This document shows positions 1 through 7,897 of a stretch of 48,679 nucleotides of DNA, one piece after another (position 1 is the stretch's first letter; every line of letters starts with the position of its first letter). Origin of the DNA: Gemmatimonadaceae bacterium. GTDB lineage: Bacteria; Gemmatimonadota; Gemmatimonadetes; Gemmatimonadales; Gemmatimonadaceae. The notes under the pieces were generated by a model, which was given only the letters and a program-made list of their open reading frames with translations, was not told where the DNA came from and did no database searches. A program made the translations under genes and the position numbers. The DNA lies in contig JBDTAZ010000033.1 in the NCBI GenBank assembly GCA_039924325.1, positions 1-48,679 of the forward strand, read 5' to 3'.

Positions 1-79
1 TGACGGGGCCCTCGTCCGACCGACGCGCCAAGTGCAGGGCACAGATTACGCCGTACTCGGCCCAGGTGGTGATCCGCAT
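1..79 (-). CDS. Rrf2/IscR-family transcriptional regulator, N-terminal fragment running off the left edge
   Basis: Open-ended, so absent from the ORF track. The minus-strand ATG at 79..77 reads MRITTWAEYGVICALHLARRSDEGPV..., a typical Rrf2 N-terminal wHTH opening. No clear SD upstream. Confidence 0.5.
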   Translation of the reverse strand, partial: MRITTWAEYGVICALHLARRSDEGPV

Positions 80-177
80 ACATGGAGGATACCGGGGCGG
101 ACGGCGCGGAGCAAGGGTTGAGGGGCTCCGCATCGACGCGGCACCCCTATCCTGCTCGTACTGGAACTGTCAAAGAC

Positions 178-3100
178 TTACTGTGAGAAGTACATCCGGA
201 TGGACTTACCGTTCATAAAATCGGTGATGAATTGGGATAGATACGGCATCTGCGACGAGGAGAGGATTCCTCGAATTAACGGCCGCTCGCGCATCGTTAT
301 AGCCTCCGCGGAATCGGAGCTTGCCCGACTGAATTCAAGTAGCTCCGCGGACGTTCTATTATCGGAGTTAATGACTATCACCTCAGCAAGTACATGCCAT
401 ACGGAATCCATGCGTGCGCGGTACGGGATATCCGCTGAGCCAAGGCTGTCGAACTGTGCGCGCGACAGGAATAACGAGTCGCTCTCTTCGCGAATTTCCT
501 GATACACGTCAGGGACCGAGCGCGAGTAACGAGCCTGAATCGCTGCAACACGTTCAGTTTCGGAGCCTGTGTGACGTGACGCATCCTCGATTGACCGGCC
601 GAACATCTGCTCGTCAGTCGGCTTGGAAAGATCGATACTCACTTGAAAGCTGACAATAGGGTTCTGAACGTATGAAGGCCTTCCGAAATGAGCGTTTGGT
701 CCAAGTGCGAACGCCTGCTTCGTTGCTGAAAAACCTGTGACGTAATATGCAATCGGGTCCACGCTGGCCGCACCTGCCCAATGCGCGCTGTTGACTGCCG
801 CCAGCGGATTGTCGACAACGAGGCTGATCGTCGTCCGCTGGGATAGGTGCAGCGATTGGCCTTGAGCATCGAGGCGGACCATAGCCAACGCCTGCCAAGG
901 ACCACGGCACCCATTGGTTCCAACCATTCGGCCGGCAGCGCTCTGGAGACACGCCACCGCCGCCTTGTCGCCGGCAACTGGGATGGCGGGATCCGAAAAG
1001 GCGCGGTCGTTGATGAATCCATCCCCGTTCACGTCGCCACCGACGATGGGTGTGTACGGCAGCCCGGACCTAACTTTAACATACGCAGACAACGCCAGAG
1101 CGCGCGGACCATACATCCCACCCATCATCACGAGTTGGTGACGAACATCGTTGCTCGTTGGGCCGTTCGAGAAGTCGAGCGGGTTTCCAGCTGTTGTGCC
1201 TTGGAATCCCTGCATCCGCCCCGTAGTTCGCGAGAGAACGTATGTAAGCGCCCAGAATGGGCGTGGAAAAACACGCGGTGACTGGAGTTCCAGCGTCACC
1301 TGACGACTCAGAGACCTTGCGTCCGATTCGAGGCTGTTCAGATGTACTGCCTGCCGTGGCGCGACGTCTCGCTGCGGGAACGCTCCGCTCGACGCATCTA
1401 TGCTGGATGCGGAGACGTAAACGGGGCGCCCGTTCGCAAGATTGAAAACGGGGTTCCCGGAAAATTGCCGGTCAACCCAATCGGGCTGATCGATATTCAG
1501 CGAAAGTGTCGCATCGGCAGATACAACGAGACGTTTCGTTGGACGACTCCAACCGACGGATGCGCGAACGCTACGCGCAGGCTTGTAGCTTGAAGAGACA
1601 TTTGCGCCGGTGGCGCGGAACGGCGACGATAGCGACGCATCGCACCCAGGATCGGCGTTTCCGCCGTCTACCGCGCTCCAATCTGGGCCCGTCGTTGGAT
1701 TTATGCACTCCATGCGAGATGCGAGAAGCGCCGAAGATTGAGTCAATTGACTCAGCGTAGACGCGCTCGGCCAACTGCTGCGGAACAGCCCAATTCCGCC
1801 GCGGAAAAGATTTGGCGTTTGGGAGGGAAACAATCCAAGCGGTTCCTGGCTGATGTGGAATCGCGGTCCCCACTTGATCCAGCGAAATCCAATTCGCGGG
1901 CTGACTGTCACGTCGCGCAAGGCAGGGCGCTGATCGGCTATGCTGCGCACCAGATCCGAACTCGTGAGCTTCGCGAAATCTGCATCGATTCGTCCACCCA
2001 TCAACACTTGCATTGTCTTGCTTTGACTCCACGTGTCGCCGAACCAAGCGGAAGCCCCGTACGACTGCTCTCGCCACAGGCCCTCATTGCTTGACATAGT
2101 CGCAAAATTCGGCGCGTTGGATTCCAACGCACCGAGACTTTTGTAAGCGAACGTGTGCTGCACCGCGTTGCCGTCTCCAACGCGACTGCCTGTCAGGTTG
2201 ATTGTGGCGCCGTATTTCAGTCGGTGTTTATTACCGCCAACTATCATCTGATGCTCTCGACGCAGCTCGATTCCAGACGTGACGTCGATGTATCCGGACG
2301 GGACTCCTCCCAGTCCTACGCTGCGCAGCGAAGTTGAACCGGTGCTTGGCGGAACGAGAACGCTTATGGCGGGAAAGAGCCAAAGAGGGTCTGTCGTCGA
2401 GCGATCTTGATAGGCGGTCAGGCGCGTTTCGTGTAAAGCCCTGCTCTTCGTAAACTCGGACGTAAATAGCTGCAAGACTGCGCCGGTTGTTTTTGCCGTC
2501 ATCGCCTGCGAACCTGCCGCGCCCGGATTGAGTCCGACTCCAGTCTGCCGGGACGCCGCGAACTGAAGCAGCGCTCCGGCTGAGCTTCGGGAATACGGAG
2601 ATCTGTCAACACGAAAGACAGACGATAAATCACTCCGCGATACGTTGCCAGGTGAGTTGATCGAAACGGACGGAGCGCCGAGTGATGAAAGAGCGTTACG
2701 CAGGCTGGCGCGGGTCGTTCCATCAATTGCAAGAGCGGCCGGAGTCCCGCCGCCCGGCGCAAAAAGAGACGGCGCCGCGAACGACTGGTAGCTTCCTGTA
2801 ATTGCGGCATCTCCGCGATACTCGGTGCGTCCGAACGGTCCGTCGATTGCCGCAGTCGCCTGAACCGACGGTGCTTCACCCGCACTCGCTGGTGGGTTGA
2901 CGCCCATATCGAGTTTCCGGGTTGTAAACTCTCCACCGGGCAACACATCGAATGCGATGTTTGCTCCGCTGAAGCCGCCGAGCGCGGGATCATACGTGGA
3001 AGTAATCGCGCGCGCCTGAACGCGTCCAAAAGAGGGCAGACTGATCGCGCCCGCAGCGCTTCCGCCCAGCGTGGTACTGTTCTGGTCGGTTCCAAGTCCG

Positions 3101-3642
3101 AGGAATGACGGGCCACGAACTCCATCGCCCACGGCGCCTGGCAGTAACTGCAGGAAACCTGCATCGATCGATCCATTGACCGGCTGCGTCACGACCAGGC
3201 CTCCGGTGGCGTCGGTCTCGGCGTTGGAGAAATCCTTGCCGACGGCACGCCACTTTGGAGGCAACGGCCGTCGAGCAGTGACGTGTACGGCCGAAAGTGC
3301 GACAGTATTCGCGTGAAGTACAAAGTCGGCCGTCACGTTTTGTTGCGTGACGGGGACTGTAACCCTGCGCCGCTGCGACTCGAATCCAGTCGCCGCTACG
3401 TGTACGAGAAAATCGCCGCTCGAATTTGTGATGAACGAGCTGAAATGGCCGAAGCCGTCCGTGGAGTCTTGAACGGTACGGCGCGTGGGGGCGATCGTGA
3501 TTGAAACAACCGCGCCGGCGATTGGTTTGCTTGTTGAGTCACGCACGACTCCGGAGACTCGCTGCGTTGTGTCGACGCTCGCGCGAACAGCCGCAGAAGA
3601 CGAGATCGGCAACGCGATGATTCCAATTGCGAGCAGAATCAT
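178..3642 (-). CDS. Large outer-membrane protein: N-terminal carboxypeptidase-regulatory-like domain, TonB-dependent-receptor-like beta-barrel and a ~148-aa helical C-terminal extension
   Basis: 1154-aa ORF. The N-terminus has a short signal-like segment, then VSGVVRDSTSKPIAGAVVSI...DGFGHF...GDFLVHVAATGF (CarboxypepD_reg pattern). A long Gly/Ser/Asn-rich beta-strand-like body follows. It is a clear paralog of the 45043-48679 protein (GGDVNGDG-x-NDRAF and SVWxxL blocks). Its ATG overlaps the upstream stop (ATGA at 3639..3642). Confidence 0.75.
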   Translation of the reverse strand: MILLAIGIIALPISSSAAVRASVDTTQRVSGVVRDSTSKPIAGAVVSITIAPTRRTVQDSTDGFGHFSSFITNSSGDFLVHVAATGFESQRRRVTVPVTQQNVTADFVLHANTVALSAVHVTARRPLPPKWRAVGKDFSNAETDATGGLVVTQPVNGSIDAGFLQLLPGAVGDGVRGPSFLGLGTDQNSTTLGGSAAGAISLPSFGRVQARAITSTYDPALGGFSGANIAFDVLPGGEFTTRKLDMGVNPPASAGEAPSVQATAAIDGPFGRTEYRGDAAITGSYQSFAAPSLFAPGGGTPAALAIDGTTRASLRNALSSLGAPSVSINSPGNVSRSDLSSVFRVDRSPYSRSSAGALLQFAASRQTGVGLNPGAAGSQAMTAKTTGAVLQLFTSEFTKSRALHETRLTAYQDRSTTDPLWLFPAISVLVPPSTGSTSLRSVGLGGVPSGYIDVTSGIELRREHQMIVGGNKHRLKYGATINLTGSRVGDGNAVQHTFAYKSLGALESNAPNFATMSSNEGLWREQSYGASAWFGDTWSQSKTMQVLMGGRIDADFAKLTSSDLVRSIADQRPALRDVTVSPRIGFRWIKWGPRFHISQEPLGLFPSQTPNLFRGGIGLFRSSWPSASTLSQLTQSSALLASRMECINPTTGPDWSAVDGGNADPGCDASLSSPFRATGANVSSSYKPARSVRASVGWSRPTKRLVVSADATLSLNIDQPDWVDRQFSGNPVFNLANGRPVYVSASSIDASSGAFPQRDVAPRQAVHLNSLESDARSLSRQVTLELQSPRVFPRPFWALTYVLSRTTGRMQGFQGTTAGNPLDFSNGPTSNDVRHQLVMMGGMYGPRALALSAYVKVRSGLPYTPIVGGDVNGDGFINDRAFSDPAIPVAGDKAAVACLQSAAGRMVGTNGCRGPWQALAMVRLDAQGQSLHLSQRTTISLVVDNPLAAVNSAHWAGAASVDPIAYYVTGFSATKQAFALGPNAHFGRPSYVQNPIVSFQVSIDLSKPTDEQMFGRSIEDASRHTGSETERVAAIQARYSRSVPDVYQEIREESDSLFLSRAQFDSLGSADIPYRARMDSVWHVLAEVIVINSDNRTSAELLEFSRASSDSAEAITMRERPLIRGILSSSQMPYLSQFITDFMNGKSIRMYFSQ

Positions 3643-4700
3643 TTTGTTCCTGCCGCGCCGGTCGCGAGCCGCAACCTAAGGATGCGAAGCGGGCGCGTCC
3701 GTCCGATGGCGAAAACGGCGCCCTCCACAGCCATTATTCGCCCCGCACGTTCCGGAAGGACATAGCTATGAAGATATGTCGCTGTCGGTACGTCATACTC
3801 GTCTATCAGTCGATCGCGGTCAAGAGTGCTTCCAGCGAATAGCACGTAAAGTTTGTCTCCGTCAACTGCGATACTGATAGCGGATCGCGTCGATCGCAGG
3901 ACTTCTGTCGTGATGCCATTCGAAGAATCGAACTGGAGCAGATCCGGGAATTTTGTCGCTTCAACGTATACTCCGGTATACCTTCGGCCGGTCGTACTCG
4001 ACACAGTCCAACCGTCGCCGTAGACGAACCCGACCGCCCAGTTGCCGCGACTATCCGTGGTGAGGTCGGTGGCGCGTGCGAGAGCATCGAGCCGCCCATA
4101 AAACGTCCACGGCAACGCAAAACCACGGATTACGCCTCCGGAACCAGCAACCAACAGCACCGGCGAAGCACTCGAATCACTCAACACCAGTAAGGTATCG
4201 AATCCGAACGCCGCTATGCCATCGGCGTTCGTGACTGCCTTAATCGAGACAGGCACACCCGCCCCTCCAACCCGTTTGATGGCGCGGGTCTTCCCGTCAA
4301 GAACCCACGCCCGATCATCGCTCGACGCCGCTAACTCAACCGGAAAGGGAGCCTGCGTATCTGCTGCGAAACGCAAGGAGGCGCGCCATCGCGATTTCAT
4401 CTTCCAGTCCACGGACACCACGGAATCCGCGCTCGCGTCGATGTAGTCGATGCCCGAGTGGGTGATGGCTACGTGTTGGGCATACTGGGGGCCCGCCGCA
4501 CTGAACTGATACACGGTATCCCAGCGCGACAAGACGATTTTCCGTGTGCCCCCGCGTTGCGCTCCTCCAATTGAGTGTTCGGAAATCACTCTAGTATGAC
4601 CATCGCGGGCTCTTGCGCAACCGTCGGATAACGCGGTTATTGTTACGATCCCAACGCAGGCAAGTAAGGTAACTTGCCTGCGAGCTGTGTCAAACGTCAT
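3639..4700 (-). CDS. Hypothetical exported/anchored protein with beta-propeller-like repeats
   Basis: 353-aa ORF with an N-terminal hydrophobic segment (VTLLACVGIVTITALSDGC; the lipobox is not canonical). It has recurring strand-turn motifs such as DDRAWVLDG, DSRGNWAVGFVYGDGW, VDGDKLYVLFAG and EGAVFAIG. There are 4-nt overlaps with both neighbours (4697..4700 and 3639..3642). The fold call is by eye only. Confidence 0.5.
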   Translation of the reverse strand: MTFDTARRQVTLLACVGIVTITALSDGCARARDGHTRVISEHSIGGAQRGGTRKIVLSRWDTVYQFSAAGPQYAQHVAITHSGIDYIDASADSVVSVDWKMKSRWRASLRFAADTQAPFPVELAASSDDRAWVLDGKTRAIKRVGGAGVPVSIKAVTNADGIAAFGFDTLLVLSDSSASPVLLVAGSGGVIRGFALPWTFYGRLDALARATDLTTDSRGNWAVGFVYGDGWTVSSTTGRRYTGVYVEATKFPDLLQFDSSNGITTEVLRSTRSAISIAVDGDKLYVLFAGSTLDRDRLIDEYDVPTATYLHSYVLPERAGRIMAVEGAVFAIGRTRPLRILRLRLATGAAGTK

Positions 4701-5233
4701 AGGGCTTGCCGCACCGTTGCGATAGACACGATTTCGGGTGGTAGGAAAACGCGCGTAATTCGCCCGACGGTGTCGATGAGGATAGCAAATGGGGTTGCAC
4801 GAATCGACAAAGCACCCATCACGAACACCGCATCGCGCGTATCAATCACATGCACACTAGCCTGCAGTCCACTGGCGGCAGCGACAGACTCGGCCTCTTT
4901 CTCAGATAGGTCATCGTCAACAAAGGTAGCATCGACATTAACGATGTTTGAGAGGTGAGAGTCAAGAGCATCCAACGCATCGATGGCGGTCGCGCAGTCG
5001 CGAGGCTGCATTACTAAAACCAACCTTGGCCGTGCGAAATTGCCTCCGCTTGGCGAAAGGCCAAGCATGCGCATGAACGGACGTCGCGTTTCCGCCAGCC
5101 GACGCGCCTGAAGCGCTACGGTCGCCACCAATACCGCCAGAACTATCCAAGGAGCAATGTTCAACACGCGCTCAACGATTTTGGACCGAGCATGACCAAA
5201 CATACCCCTCCTAAGTCTTTCCCACTGTTGCAT
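4697..5233 (-). CDS. Membrane-anchored thioredoxin-fold (TlpA/ResA-like) protein with a monothiol C-A-T-A in place of CxxC
   Basis: 178 aa with one N-terminal TM (IAPWIVLAVLVATVALQA). The layout is TlpA-like: RPRLVLVMQPRDCATAIDALDALD at the position of the usual hhhFWASWCxxC motif, and a later ATPFAILIDTVGRI (cis-Pro loop plus D..G.I pattern). Only one Cys sits at the active-site position. Confidence 0.5.
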   Translation of the reverse strand: MQQWERLRRGMFGHARSKIVERVLNIAPWIVLAVLVATVALQARRLAETRRPFMRMLGLSPSGGNFARPRLVLVMQPRDCATAIDALDALDSHLSNIVNVDATFVDDDLSEKEAESVAAASGLQASVHVIDTRDAVFVMGALSIRATPFAILIDTVGRITRVFLPPEIVSIATVRQAL

Positions 5234-5297
5234 TCAATCAGACATAGGTGCCGCGTGATCGGTTCGAAGGTCACACGGCACCCATTCTGACACACCA

Positions 5298-5516
5298 CTA
5301 CTGCGGATCAGGAAAGTAAAAAGAGTCCGTGTGACAAACCTTGACTAATCCGATGGTCACGCACACTTGCGTAGTGCTACACAGCGGCAGGGTCATGCCA
5401 CTGCAACGCGAGGAATCGGCTCGGACGGCCTTCGTCGGGACTGCAAGCGCGAGGACAACAACGCCGACGCCACTCGCCAAACCAAGTACCTTGAGAACTG
5501 CAACTTTGGTTATCAC
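5298..5516 (-). CDS. Small secreted four-cysteine peptide precursor, copy A (72 aa if started at GTG 5516)
   Basis: The track ORF 5298..5582 (94 aa) is trimmed here. The GTG at 5516 is preceded by GGAG 9 nt upstream and gives 72 aa, exactly the length of copy B, with a gapless alignment. An alternative ATG lies at 5531. It has a Sec-type leader ...ALAVPTKAVRA, then a 39-aa Cys-rich mature part. Confidence 0.6.
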   Translation of the reverse strand: MITKVAVLKVLGLASGVGVVVLALAVPTKAVRADSSRCSGMTLPLCSTTQVCVTIGLVKVCHTDSFYFPDPQ

Positions 5517-5768
5517 TATCCGTATCTCCATGCAGGTGAAACCACGCGGGCGCAGAAAGTGTTCCTGCAACCCATCTCGCATGTATCAGCCCAACAGGAG
5601 GGTCTGCTACGCGATTCATGCGGCATTCCCGATGTACTTCGACTGCGCATGTTGGACAGTTCGCTTGCCTTCGCAAACTGGCCGACGAGCCATAACGGTT
5701 CTCAGTCATGCAGACTGCCGTTATAGCAAACGCGGGTGGTGCTGGCCGTCACGGTCCGCTGACTCGCG

Positions 5769-5987
5769 TCATTCCGGACTTTCGCGGTAGTAGTAGTTCG
5801 TTGTGCAAGTAATCACCTTGAGCAGGGTGTCACAGTGCTGCGTGTGATTGCAACTTGGCGTAACCATACCGTCGCATCCTGTGTCGGCAGCGAGAGCCGG
5901 CTTCGTCGGCACGGCCAACGCCGCAATTCCCGCCCCAATACTCCCCACGAGCGCCACCAGCTTTAGAACGGTGCTTGTCCTTGCCAT
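5769..5987 (-). CDS. Small secreted four-cysteine peptide precursor, copy B (72 aa)
   Basis: ATG preceded by GGAGACAAC (SD about 5 nt upstream). Leader is MARTSTVLKLVALVGSIGAGIAALAVPTKPALA and the mature part is ADTGCDGMVTPSCNHTQHCDTLLKVITCTTNYYYRESPE. It is paralogous to copy A with all four Cys in register. Confidence 0.7.
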   Translation of the reverse strand: MARTSTVLKLVALVGSIGAGIAALAVPTKPALAADTGCDGMVTPSCNHTQHCDTLLKVITCTTNYYYRESPE

Positions 5988-6047
5988 GTTGTCTCCGGTA
6001 AACGGGATACTTCTGTGCCGGGCGCGTGAACACCATATGCTGCACCC

Positions 6048-6658
6048 TCACAATATTTGGTTCCCCTTAGTAAGGTAGTGTTCGCATTTTCGGCCCGCTA
6101 TGCGTTTCCCGGCCAAATGATGCTGAATCCAGCCAAATTCACCGCTCGCATACGCCCACGGCGCGCGAAAGGGTACAAATGGAGTTCGCCAAGTGACTCG
6201 AGGCATATAGTTGCCGATCGCGACGCAACTCGCCGAGACGATTAGTGCGATGACGATTGGTTCGCGGCTGGCTCCGATATACCCAAGCGCTGTACAAATC
6301 GTGAAGACGTGAATCGCCAGCAGGAGCGCCAGAACTGCAACGACGATGGTACCGTACACCGGGCGAGATGTCGACGAATCGGACGCCCGATTCGAGTATC
6401 TGCTGAAGACTGATGCGTCGTAGCGCGGCAGCAAAATGAGCAGCAAAATGAGCAGCTACCAGATCACCAGCATCACGACGGGTGCAATGAGCGCGCCAGT
6501 CAGCGGGCCGCGAAACCATTGGGCTGGCCTGAAAATCCCCAATGCGTAGCAATACGCGCCGGGAGATGTGGATACGCAAACGCGGACAGCGCGAATGCCG
6601 CCACGATGAGTACAACCGAAACTACCCTTGTATGATCACGCATCTGCCTGTCCGTCAT
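6048..6658 (-). pseudogene. SdpI/YhfL-family (DUF1648 + SdpI domain) membrane protein, apparently disrupted by a frameshift and an in-frame TAG
   Basis: The N-terminal piece (ORF 6500..6700; likely start ATG 6658 or 6643) carries the DUF1648 motif YPHLPARIATHWGFSGQPNGF. The C-terminal piece (ORF 6048..6446) carries the SdpI motif IGNYMPRV...FRAPWAYASGE-W. The connecting segment reads GPLTGALIAPVVMLVIW (a good TM helix) in the downstream frame. That segment is cut off from the N-terminal piece by a frame change near 6500-6510 and from the C-terminal piece by TAG at 6458..6456. Confidence 0.55.
6428..6456. repeat. 12-bp tandem duplication GCAGCAAAATGA x2.4 inside the SdpI-like gene
   Basis: Plus strand reads gcagcaaaatga gcagcaaaatga gcagc. 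On the coding (minus) strand this duplicates LLIL -> LLILLLIL. It abuts the in-frame TAG at 6456..6458. Confidence 0.9.
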
Positions 6659-6920
6659 TCGATGAAGCCCGTGTCCATTCAGCGAGCCGCGCCAGGACAT
6701 CCTGAAATACGGTGGTTGCCAACTCGTAACGCATAAACTGACCTTCCTTCTCGGCGCTTATCAGGCCCGCATCCCGGAGCACACTGAGGTGCCGCGAGAT
6801 TGTCGGCCACGATGAGCCGAACTGTTCCGCGATCTCTCCCGAAGTCCGGGATCCGGCACGAAGCTGGTCGAGAATTGCGCGCCGCGTCGGATCCGCGAGC
6901 GCGCGGAATGCGTCGGTCAC
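6636..6920 (-). CDS. ArsR-family transcriptional repressor of the SdpR (autorepressor) type
   Basis: 94 aa: MTDAFRALADPTRRAILDQLRAGSRTSGEIAEQFGSSWPTISRHLSVLRDAGLISAEKEGQFMRYELATTVFQDV... This matches the SdpR-type pattern F.ALADPTRR.IL..L......G.IAE.F..S.PTIS.HL..L..AGL.....GQ...Y.L. The GTG start overlaps the hydrolase stop (GTGA, 6917..6920). Its 3' end overlaps the SdpI-like start. Confidence 0.85.
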   Translation of the reverse strand: MTDAFRALADPTRRAILDQLRAGSRTSGEIAEQFGSSWPTISRHLSVLRDAGLISAEKEGQFMRYELATTVFQDVLARLAEWTRASSNDGQADA

Positions 6921-7897
6921 CGCGATTGCGGCGCCGAACGCACATACGCGGCGATCGCCGAAATGAGTTCCGGAGGAATTGGCACAGATGGATCGGTGTA
7001 CACACCGGCAACCTGCGCGGTTGCGTCGGCAGGCCCGATCTTCAGGACGTGTGTCATGCCGTCAATCTTCAGCAGCTTTGCACCAGGCGCGGCCGCCAGA
7101 AGATTCGCGTCGTCCATCGAGACCTGTATGTCGTGCGTTCCCTGCACTATCAACGTCGCGTACGGCAGCTTTTTCAGGTCAGCGGCTGGGTCGTGGCGAA
7201 ACCACGAAATGAGGTATGGTTGCACACTTGGACGGAACAGCGCGGCGAGCGAAGGGGGAATGCTGTCGACAGTCTTGCCGGTCGAGAGACTGTCGAGAAT
7301 CGGACCGAATATCGCGGCCGGGGCACCGCCTGCTGTGAGCTGTTCGCGGATGACTACGGCTGCGGGCCTGCCAGCGCCCTCGAGCGAGACGAAGCCGTCG
7401 GCCTTTTCGCGCTCGGCGGCGTCCATTCCAACAAGCGATCCCTCGCTGTGACCGACGACAACGACCTTGGAGAATCGAGGATCGGCGCGAAGCAGCTTGA
7501 TCCAGGCCGCGGCGTCGTTGATTCCAGTGTCGAAGCGATAATCGCTCTCGGTGTGTCCTGCCATCGCGCCGGCACTCGCGGCGACGCCACGTTTGTCGTA
7601 GCGGACGGAGGCGATGCCATCGGCCGCGAGATCAGCCGCTAGGATCTTGTACGTGTCAGGATGCAGCAGCTTGCCAGGAACGACCTGAATGGGCGAATTG
7701 CCATCCCGATCAGTGGGGCCGGAGCCAGCGATGATGAGAACCACTGGATGCTTGCCGCCCCCCGGAGGGACGACGAGTGAGCCGAACAGGTCGCCGGTCG
7801 GGGTCTTCAGCGTGATGGGCTGGGAAGCAACGCTGTCGGCTGGCGCGGGAAGCGCCGAACCGGCTGCCATGGAGGCGACGAAGAGCGCGGTGAGCAT
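6917..7897 (-). CDS. Secreted alpha/beta-fold hydrolase
   Basis: 326 aa with an N-terminal signal-like MLTALFVASMAAGSALPAPA and the nucleophile elbow VVVVGHSEGSLVG. PVVLIIAGSGPTDRDGN is a typical pre-elbow strand, and a late GTHDIQV/MTHVLK region could supply the Asp/His. Confidence 0.8.
   Translation of the reverse strand: MLTALFVASMAAGSALPAPADSVASQPITLKTPTGDLFGSLVVPPGGGKHPVVLIIAGSGPTDRDGNSPIQVVPGKLLHPDTYKILAADLAADGIASVRYDKRGVAASAGAMAGHTESDYRFDTGINDAAAWIKLLRADPRFSKVVVVGHSEGSLVGMDAAEREKADGFVSLEGAGRPAAVVIREQLTAGGAPAAIFGPILDSLSTGKTVDSIPPSLAALFRPSVQPYLISWFRHDPAADLKKLPYATLIVQGTHDIQVSMDDANLLAAAPGAKLLKIDGMTHVLKIGPADATAQVAGVYTDPSVPIPPELISAIAAYVRSAPQSR

Follow-up and report, generated by a model that had tools for sequence, protein, structure and literature searches.

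A mosaic locus in a Gemmatimonadaceae contig carries a recurrent cassette for cysteine peptides, a thioredoxin-like protein and a propeller protein

Several described systems combine small exported peptides or subunits with dedicated partners in the envelope. Gram-positive bacteriocin operons include dedicated thiol-disulfide oxidoreductases and lipoprotein immunity (sublancin sunA-bdbA-bdbB; LanI lipoproteins), and the methylamine dehydrogenase cluster encodes a propeller (MauB), a Cys-rich small subunit (MauA), a thioredoxin (Trx)-like protein (MauD) and a di-haem protein (MauG). MacB-type pumps expel periplasmic peptides such as the enterotoxin STII. To our knowledge, secretion by a TonB-dependent transporter (TBDT) has one documented case so far, that of Oar and PopC. 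Oar is a TBDT that is extended at its N-terminus by a CarboxypepD_reg domain; it is needed to secrete PopC from the periplasm and is the founding member of the Oar TBDT subclass (PMC6434023). Here, we analyze eight consecutive genes at the start of a Gemmatimonadaceae contig (JBDTAZ010000033.1, assembly GCA_039924325.1; the whole stretch, positions 1 to 48,679 of the forward strand or 48,679 nucleotides, is called the window), five of which form a cassette for two cysteine peptides, a Trx-like protein, a propeller and an outer-membrane protein (OMP).

The eight genes are three separately acquired blocks with different histories, and the locus is a mosaic within the contig, not the single eight-gene module that an initial annotation of this DNA had proposed. 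Its reading of the gene layout was accurate: all eight open reading frames (ORFs) are present, consecutive and on the minus strand in the order given. The coupling overlaps are also real, each of 4 nt, between hydrolase and sdpR (6917-6920, where the hydrolase stop overlaps the sdpR start as GTGA), between the Trx-like and propeller genes (4697-4700), and between propeller and OMP genes (3639-3642, where the OMP start overlaps the propeller stop codon as ATGA). We hold with high confidence that the locus is a mosaic in which the cassette is independent of the sdpR-sdpI pair (sdpRI). The features are as follows.

6917-7897, minus strand: gene for a secreted alpha/beta-hydrolase, 326 aa
6636-6920, minus strand: sdpR, gene for an SdpR-family ArsR repressor, 94 aa
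6048-6700, minus strand: sdpI pseudogene, a broken membrane-protein gene with a DUF1648 N-terminus
6108 to 6145, no strand: left junction, where similarity to the sdpI of relatives ends and cassette-specific DNA starts
5769-5987, minus strand: peptide B precursor, 72 aa, with a Sec-type leader
5298-5528, minus strand: peptide A precursor, 76-77 aa if started at MEIRIV...; upstream of this start the ORF stays open as far as an ATG at 5582
4697-5233, minus strand: Trx-like membrane-anchored periplasmic protein, 178 aa
3639-4700, minus strand: NHL-type propeller, probably a lipoprotein, 353 aa
178-3642, minus strand: Oar-type TBDT-like OMP, 1154 aa
127 to 177, no strand: right junction, past the OMP stop codon; homology to relatives resumes from 126 back

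The window was compared with 80 related genome loci, each with at most 10 kb of flank per side; the flanking aspartase (aspA) is up to 93% identical to Gemmatimonadaceae at the amino-acid level. By tblastn, hydrolase, SdpR and SdpI were found in L001, L002, L003, L004 and L013, and SdpR and SdpI in L005, while none of the 80 loci contained the peptide, Trx-like, propeller or OMP genes. The edges of the unmatched segment are sharp in blastn alignments. Window 6145-7822 aligns to L001 13332-11666, and the alignment runs from 6143 onward in L081 and L013. At the other end window 3-126, comprising the Rrf2 upstream region and first codons, aligns to L001 13652-13529 with 86% identity, and a similar alignment is found in most of the 80 Gemmatimonadaceae loci. 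Window ~127-6144 is lineage-specific DNA with junctions at 126/127 and ~6145, and the two L001 alignments therefore mean that it stands where L001 has about 200 bp of other sequence; the 3' end of sdpI is part of what the five-gene cassette has replaced. The cassette genes have lower GC content at third codon positions and lower codon adaptation than the housekeeping genes sampled in the window (codon adaptation index 0.54-0.64 vs 0.63-0.74, with 12 of 13 housekeeping genes at 0.65 or above). No terminal repeats were found at the junctions; repeats, promoters and terminators around them were no commoner than in shuffled sequence, and the window contains no tRNA or Rfam element.

In more distant relatives Rrf2 directly follows aspA, and the hydrolase-sdpRI block is therefore an older insertion itself. 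L081, L082 and L084 carry an intact sdpI, a spacer of ~300 bp, an OMP gene (77-79% identical to the window OMP) and Rrf2, without peptides, Trx-like gene or propeller. Comparisons of close relatives (L001, L009, L026 and L081) thus resolve four nested states of the aspA-Rrf2 interval, which behaves as an insertion hotspot: empty; with hydrolase-sdpR-sdpI; with the OMP gene added; and with peptide-peptide-Trx-propeller added. These states are a possible natural knock-in/knock-out series for metagenomic or culture-based comparison. Just upstream of the OMP gene, L081 has a possible remnant of the propeller 3' end of ~20 nt ('AAAGTK*' followed by ATGA). Such a remnant may hint at a deletion in L081, and it is too short to decide between insertion in the window and deletion there.

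Family assignments in the older block agree with the initial annotation. The secreted alpha/beta-hydrolase matches Hydrolase_4 in a Pfam scan (E 4.9e-12), and the repressor reaches 106.3 bits against the NCBIfam model NF033789 (cutoff 100; E 5.4e-31) and also matches HTH_5/ArsR. The membrane protein, described as SdpI-type and disrupted, has a DUF1648 (PF07853) N-terminus (E 6.6e-15) in a broken gene. Compared with the intact ortholog of L001, the closest genome, it is read in two frames, with a frameshift near 6505, an in-frame TAG near 6447 and the last ~50 codons gone; tblastn similarity to SdpI stops at 6108. PF13630 was undetected in the window sdpI, where only DUF1648 was found and no uninterrupted ORF remains, whereas intact orthologs with PF13630 are present in L001, L081 and L082. 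Right after the in-frame TAG there is a 12-bp tandem duplication of four codons, ctgctcattttg x2 (window ~6440-6463). The window sdpI is a resident gene that was cut off at the cassette junction and, like sdpR and the hydrolase as members of the older block, it lies outside the cassette.

In the initial annotation SdpR and SdpI acted as receptor, immunity and regulator of both peptides, in an Sdp-like circuit across all eight genes that would amount to a diderm cannibalism circuit. The window itself offers some grounds for this, considering that the genes adjoin on one strand, the repressor truly belongs to the SdpR family and its neighbor has a DUF1648/SdpI-type N-terminus. The distribution of the genes argues strongly against it. 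At seven related loci (L001-L005, L013 and L081) sdpR-sdpI, mostly with the hydrolase, occupies the same locus without peptides. None of the 12 cassette loci found elsewhere carries an sdpR or sdpI homolog, and in the sole genome with both blocks adjacent sdpI is a pseudogene that lost its 3' end at the cassette junction. The neighborhood comparison that had been proposed as a check therefore gave a divided answer: the last five genes recur together, and sdpRI does not co-occur with the peptides. Because sdpRI is found without peptides and peptides without sdpRI, the outcome is the one that the initial annotation had itself named as refuting its model. Its remark that no SdpA/B/C-like gene is visible was correct, as no SdpA, SdpB or SdpC homolog was detected and the Pfam and NCBIfam scans gave no match to an SdpC-like family. 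SdpR and SdpI very probably have no part in the function of the cassette, and we consider the circuit model very improbable. An sdpRI-like pair beside small ORFs should not be annotated as a toxin circuit without evidence from synteny.

The partner with which the Sdp block is co-inherited is the alpha/beta-hydrolase and not a toxin. Hydrolase orthologs of 68-80% identity stand in the same position in L001, L002, L003, L004, L013 and L081, where the trio hydrolase-sdpR-sdpI occurs without any peptide gene; L005 has sdpR-sdpI alone. In L001-L005 and L013 the block lies directly downstream of aspA, and in L001 sdpI is followed by the Rrf2 regulator, smpB, an amidase, pyrD and ribosomal-protein genes. 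Conservation of the hydrolase with sdpR-sdpI across the clade (L001-L004, L013 and L081), with GTGA coupling in the window, suggests that sdpRI here regulates or senses something hydrolase-related rather than a peptide toxin.

Outside the related loci, the core of the cassette (one or more peptides, the Trx-like protein and the propeller, with starts and stops overlapping or abutting) was found in distant lineages of soil bacteria, at least eight in number and with 25-35% identity. It is a conserved gene unit with a patchy distribution and island-like contexts: the L103 cassette lies inside a toxin-antitoxin-rich island and that of L099 next to a transposase, which hints at an accessory or mobile nature. 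Additional propeller loci were retrieved with a hand-made degenerate DNA pattern, which returned 11 loci, five of them true homologs. The compositions are given below in the order peptides, Trx-like protein, propeller and next gene.

Window: peptides of 72 and 76-77 aa; Trx-like protein of 178 aa; propeller of 353 aa; next, the Oar-type TBDT-like protein of 1154 aa
L103: peptides of 72 and 78 aa; Trx-like protein of 163 aa; propeller of 357 aa; next, a homolog of the window OMP
L085: a contig end hides peptides and Trx-like gene; propeller C-terminus only, 52% identical; next, a 65%-identical OMP with an ATGA overlap
L088/L089: peptides of 71 and 77 aa; Trx-like protein of 180 aa; propeller of 358 aa; no coupled gene, convergent genes next
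L090/L091 and the P0167 contig: peptides of 71 and 75 aa; Trx-like protein of 163-182 aa; propeller of 357-367 aa; no coupled gene
L104/L105: at least one 4-Cys peptide (cut); Trx-like protein of 155 aa; propeller of 351 aa; next, an ADOP permease
L093 and L102: one 2-Cys peptide; Trx-like protein of 173-194 aa; propeller of 351-363 aa
L099: one peptide, downstream of the propeller; Trx-like protein of 182 aa; propeller of 357 aa; then a DsbA-like and a transposase-like gene
L095: no peptide; no Trx-like gene upstream; a 35%-identical propeller homolog; then the contig end

The closest parallel in gene content is L103, which has all five genes in the same order, with overlapping or abutting Trx-like/propeller and propeller/OMP genes and proteins 28-39% identical; its OMP homolog is 29% identical to the window OMP over residues 3-617 and ends at the contig end. 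Because the same five genes keep their order at this level of protein identity, we consider them functionally linked. Coupling of propeller and OMP genes is seen in three lineages (window, L085 and L103), and L085 has a genomic context different from that of the window. In L104 and L105 the propeller gene overlaps the ADOP permease gene, which stands in for the outer-membrane gene. This permease is a duplicated FtsX/MacB-type protein of the ADOP family (793 aa; TIGR03434, E 1e-89; L104 1787-4168 and L105 1346-3727).

The DsbA-like protein of L099 has a CPYC active site (FADYECPYCR), and its gene is followed by the integrase/transposase-like gene (reverse complement ~2545-3231 and 3795-4982). 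Immediately before the cassette, L090 (3198-4412) and the P0167 contig have a gene for a di-haem DHOR (PF06537), and the subfamily of L088-L091 is flanked by CcmF/CcmH cytochrome-c maturation and Hyp hydrogenase-maturation genes.

High-GC DNA is full of spurious ORFs, and a first metagenome pattern scan with the two-peptide alignment returned no peptide homolog; from these two points one could argue that the small ORFs are non-coding or that their adjacency is a matter of chance. We regard this as extremely unlikely. The peptide ORFs keep their position, leader, Cys spacing and aromatic tail across divergent loci where the flanking proteins are only 25-35% identical, and peptide A matches L103 peptide 2 with 39% identity (E 7e-11). 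Since the propeller family comprises ~400 clusters at 50% identity and has the same partners in nearly every neighborhood sampled, we take the peptide-Trx-propeller core to be a real, recurrent and unstudied envelope module, and it very likely forms a functional unit. The initial annotation had spoken of an undescribed module; this stands for the two peptides, Trx-like protein, propeller and OMP as linked genes, and falls for sdpRI and the hydrolase, which are not part of it. The cassette appears to be undescribed, with three of its parts lacking Pfam or NCBIfam coverage, and a literature search for DUF5128 returned no paper.

The two peptides of the window are indeed Sec-leader Cys-peptides as first described. 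They are paralogs of 39% identity with four invariant Cys, a common LAVPTK leader and AxA-type sites. The leader of peptide A ends VRA|D and that of peptide B ALA|A, each followed by a mature part of ~39 aa with the spacing C-x7-C-x5-C-x8-C and then TDSFYF (A) or TTNYYY (B); a GGAGA stands 5 nt upstream of the peptide B ATG. Peptide B matches L103 peptide 1 (CTKDYYY) with E 4e-4. Profile searches were run against 22,226 ORF segments from the 1.4 Mb of fetched DNA. When individual 4-Cys peptides were left out of the training set of the hidden Markov model (HMM), the omitted ones came back as the top non-training matches (peptide B, E 0.0014, second-best of 22,226; peptide A, 0.02; L103 peptide 1, 1.8e-6; background 0.04), and only ORFs of cassettes were picked out. 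Across loci the peptides have a Sec-type leader with an AxA-type site, a mature N-terminus that is often acidic, the spacing C-x6-7-C-x5-C-x7-10-C and an aromatic run two to five positions past the last Cys (NYYY, SFYF, YWYWY and RYYWSY). Trp is absent from both window peptides, and none of the aromatic positions is the same in all peptides. None matches a Pfam family even at E<=10, and NCBIfam and PDB gave no usable match, only isolated sub-threshold ones. The Trx-like and propeller proteins, searched singly, gave the same picture. The single 2-Cys peptides of L093 and L102 are treated here as analogs by position alone.

That the peptides are exported by Sec and disulfide-bonded is our inference from two features, the Sec type of the leaders and the presence of a DsbA-like gene in L099; a toxin or signal role is possible. 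The spacer between the genes of peptide B and peptide A (window 5529-5772, minus strand) is unusually long and folds more stably than shuffled sequence (z = -2.46). The same spacer measures only ~45-60 nt in L103, L088 and L090.

The initial annotation of a monothiol Trx fold is borne out for the single conserved Cys, and the fold itself finds weaker support. In the eight members P77, C80 and D154 are invariant (P-x-[DE]-C plus a later Asp), and none of the eight has a second Cys at the active-site position (CATA, CPDA, CGER, CPGL, CPSR, CSTL, CAAS and CTSL), so the CxxC active site of TlpA/ResA-like oxidoreductases is absent throughout. A T-P cis-proline motif is found in six of the eight. 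A single-sequence AlphaFold2 (AF2) model, of low confidence with a mean predicted local distance difference test (pLDDT) of 44, places a transmembrane helix ahead of the order beta-alpha-beta-alpha-beta-beta-beta-alpha, and Cys80 at the N-terminal end of helix 1. The best PDB match of the family profile is 3lor, a TlpA-like thiol-disulfide isomerase (E 0.0097), with further weak Trx-fold matches to 3erw, 3fk8, 2cvb and 3drn, and the L103 member weakly matches PrxQ. No member matches Pfam, and the window protein gives no match even at E<=10. An HMM trained on four members and run against the same ORF segments found a homolog (E 7e-24 to 5e-6) in every other cassette locus where the stretch upstream of the propeller is on the contig, and no other match, the next E being 0.32. 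A Trx fold with a single active-site Cys is probable.

The propeller gene is the anchor gene of the conserved cassette, and its annotation as a beta-propeller-like exported protein is well supported. A profile of 50 family members matches six-bladed NHL propellers in the PDB (6d69, E 2.5e-31) and TRIM NHL domains (E 1e-30 to 1e-24), and 19 of 50 members match PF17170, a 6-bladed beta-propeller family, and three of 50 PF01436. The window protein alone has no Pfam match even at E<=10 and no NCBIfam family; a word-indexed homolog search returned only the protein itself, and tblastn against plasmids gave no match. An exhaustive HMMER search recovered 399 cluster representatives at E<=1e-3, of which 144 also passed E<=1e-10; almost all have ~350 aa and 22-37% identity to the query. 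A Cys (Cys28) follows the hydrophobic leader, in the non-canonical lipobox LSDGC, and an equivalent Cys is conserved in at least 90% of 50 diverse members. Because this Cys at the leader end is nearly invariant, the propeller is probably a lipoprotein. Conserved positions are mostly Gly, Trp, Phe, Pro and Asp, and the alignment contains no conserved His/Cys metal or cofactor site. Two other identities were considered and rejected: a split NHLRC2-like pair (Trx plus NHL), as the 60 best PDB sequence matches listed for the profile do not include NHLRC2, and a peptidyl-alpha-hydroxyglycine lyase or Vgb-type enzyme, as the propeller has no conserved metal-binding His cluster.

A propeller with small partners could also be the large subunit of a stable periplasmic hetero-oligomer, in which the peptides are small subunits and the Trx-like protein a dedicated assembly factor. 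This would make the complex an envelope enzyme or structural assembly in the manner of methylamine dehydrogenase or quinohemoprotein amine dehydrogenase. The gene set is alike in kind, with a small Cys-rich Sec-exported subunit, a propeller of ~350 aa and a membrane-anchored Trx-like protein. The rate of divergence is similar in peptides and propeller, the window and L103 both retain the two distinct peptide types as a pair, aromatic residues are conserved beside the last Cys, and two contexts have a di-haem DHOR gene immediately upstream. Nevertheless, we consider this reading quite unlikely. Neither an invariant Trp nor a single invariant Tyr runs through the peptides, the propeller lacks the conserved His/Cys site that a metal or cofactor would need, and its NHL type is six-bladed rather than the seven-bladed type of amine dehydrogenases, so that the features of a quinoprotein amine dehydrogenase are not found. 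The DHOR gene is also absent from the window and L103, and a patchy, island-like distribution would be unusual for a metabolic enzyme.

For the fifth gene of the cassette, the initial annotation of a giant OMP barrel agrees with structural modeling. An AF2 model from a nine-sequence alignment (pLDDT 57; predicted TM-score 0.52) has an N-terminal beta-sandwich and long antiparallel strands over residues 240-1004, and every one of its top 50 Foldseek matches in the PDB is a TBDT, led by YddB (1e-15) and FusA (2e-13), with target TM-scores of ~0.5-0.59. The fold match is to 22-stranded TBDT barrels, at moderate model confidence and with the strand number uncounted. At the N-terminus, residues 29-109 match CarboxypepD_reg (PF13620, E 5.7e-12), the defining feature of the Oar subclass. 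Some five close homologs and a few of 26-32% identity were found, two of the latter carrying the Oar-like barrel domain OMP_b-brl_4 (PF25183, E 7e-15). As modeled, the protein would have the Oar-subclass architecture, in which a TBDT is preceded by a CarboxypepD_reg extension. Plug-like motifs can be recognized by eye (LLPGAV..., LGLGTDQNSTTLGG and STYDPALGGFSGA) and are conserved across homologs, in a divergent segment with pLDDT below 50.

The C-terminal ~150 residues of the OMP (window 178-~620; residues ~1009-1143) form an all-helical domain in the model, with pLDDT 70-89. This domain ends ...RMYFSQ rather than on an aromatic residue and has invariant positions in the 26-32%-identical homologs, which is unusual for TBDTs. 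A distant OMP homolog (31% identity) in L083 (7987-13657) directly follows a BlaI/BlaR1-like pair (Penicillinase_R plus Peptidase_M56), a different recurring partner of this transporter family.

The coupling of a probable propeller lipoprotein to such a transporter could also belong to an uptake system, with the propeller capturing a ligand for the TBDT as BtuG does for BtuB, and with the Cys peptides as secreted metal- or nutrient-binding '-phores' that are re-imported, or as accessory subunits. The two genes are translationally coupled in three lineages, and all structural neighbors of the OMP model are importers, of which the top two, YddB and FusA, import proteins and one is the Bacteroides B12 TBDT with its surface lipoprotein (8bmx). 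The Cys-rich peptides could in principle bind metals. Set against this, most cassettes have no TBDT at all, and the ADOP/MacB-type permease of L104 and L105 is an inner-membrane protein unfit for import across the outer membrane. As their only leaders are of the Sec type, the peptides would also require an export route of their own, and the DsbA-like partner in L099 suggests disulfide-bonded Cys rather than free metal ligands. We therefore judge both variants of the uptake reading improbable.

Instead, we tentatively propose, with a little less than even confidence, that the cassette is a self-contained accessory unit whose disulfide peptides are bound by the propeller lipoprotein and, in cassettes with a coupled transporter, released. 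Sec would carry the peptide precursors over the inner membrane, and their leaders would be cleaved off at the AxA sites. One or two disulfides per peptide would then be formed or checked in the periplasm, where the single-Cys Trx-like protein could join via a mixed disulfide. The folded peptides, with an aromatic C-terminal strand, may be bound by the propeller lipoprotein as a carrier, a chaperone or a means of self-protection. Where a transporter is translationally coupled to the propeller, the peptides might be passed across or into the outer membrane and released, and the product would then be a bacteriocin-like or signaling peptide. The fourth component varies from an Oar-type TBDT-like protein (window, L085 and L103) to an ADOP/MacB-type permease (L104/L105) to none coupled (L088-L091).

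A number of observations weigh against this proposal. Most sampled cassettes have no coupled transporter, and release from the cell is therefore not a general property of them. TBDTs are normally importers, and in the window OMP neither plug nor TonB box could be demonstrated by HMM: the Plug model does not match it, and reaches only E 0.061 in one homolog. A Trx-like protein with a single Cys cannot alone serve as a disulfide oxidase, and two of the eight members lack the cis-proline. No immunity, regulator or processing gene is identifiable in the cassettes. The 2-Cys peptides of L093 and L102 go undetected by the 4-Cys HMM. Between L088 and L090 the peptides are ~60-65% identical by hand count, compared to 66% for the propeller, and this similar divergence would suit a diversifying toxin no better than a stable protein complex. 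Together with the single Cys and the missing transporters, it also counts against a simple bacteriocin.

A broader version of the export proposal can be offered as a speculation that we consider unlikely, namely that these cassettes represent a new envelope system, widespread in soil Gemmatimonadota/Acidobacteriota-like bacteria, in which pairs of Sec-exported, disulfide-bonded peptides are captured by the propeller lipoprotein, aided by the single-Cys Trx-like protein, and expelled via an Oar-type TBDT or an ADOP/MacB-type permease. If true, two very large 'orphan' transporter families would for the first time have a dedicated peptide cargo and a physiological role, and TonB-dependent secretion would have a second, independent case. 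The optional coupling to an Oar-type TBDT or an ADOP permease offers in any case a concrete small cargo with which to ask whether these families export peptides.

The described systems resemble the locus in different parts. With sdpABC/sdpRI of Bacillus subtilis, the window shares an SdpR-family ArsR autorepressor gene adjoining one for a DUF1648/SdpI-type membrane protein, and small secreted peptides, with presumed disulfides, encoded nearby. It differs in having no SdpA/B/C homolog, in the independent inheritance of sdpRI and cassette, and in an sdpI that is a pseudogene. The Mau cluster is similar in its propeller, its small disulfide-rich subunit exported by Sec or Tat, its membrane-anchored Trx-like assembly factor and, in some cassette contexts, an adjacent di-haem protein gene. 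In contrast to it, the cassette has no detected sequence homology to Mau proteins, no quinone-forming Trp and no MauE, and its Trx-like protein has a single Cys and its NHL propeller six blades. BtuB-BtuG likewise pairs a gene for a beta-propeller lipoprotein, a probable one in the cassette, with an adjoining TBDT gene, and 8bmx is among the matches of the OMP model; however, BtuG is seven-bladed and unrelated in sequence, BtuBG comes without peptide or Trx-like genes, and most cassettes are without a TBDT.

Oar of Myxococcus xanthus resembles the window OMP in its CarboxypepD_reg N-terminal extension followed by a large TBDT-type barrel and, by analogy, in a possible outward movement of a Sec-exported periplasmic product. 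In contrast, the window OMP lacks detected Plug/TonB-box Pfam signatures, has an extra helical C-terminal domain and is linked to Oar-class barrels only transitively, via the 26-32%-identical homologs. Its putative cargo would be peptides of ~4 kDa rather than a 50-kDa protease, and its gene is coupled to that of a probable propeller lipoprotein. Gram-positive bacteriocin operons are like the cassette in adding a Trx-fold protein (a probable one in the cassette), a lipoprotein (likewise probable) and a transporter to a pair of small secreted Cys peptides, and in their patchy, island-like distribution. The peptides do not have the hallmarks of class II two-peptide bacteriocins, since their leaders are of the Sec/AxA and not the double-glycine type and no cassette encodes a C39 ABC exporter; the Trx-like protein has one Cys instead of CxxC, the probable lipoprotein is an NHL propeller and the host is a diderm. 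Judged by sequence, the kind of system would be a known one, a cluster for secreted disulfide peptides with a thiol-redox protein, a lipoprotein and a transporter, and what would be new is its assembly from unrelated parts in a diderm.

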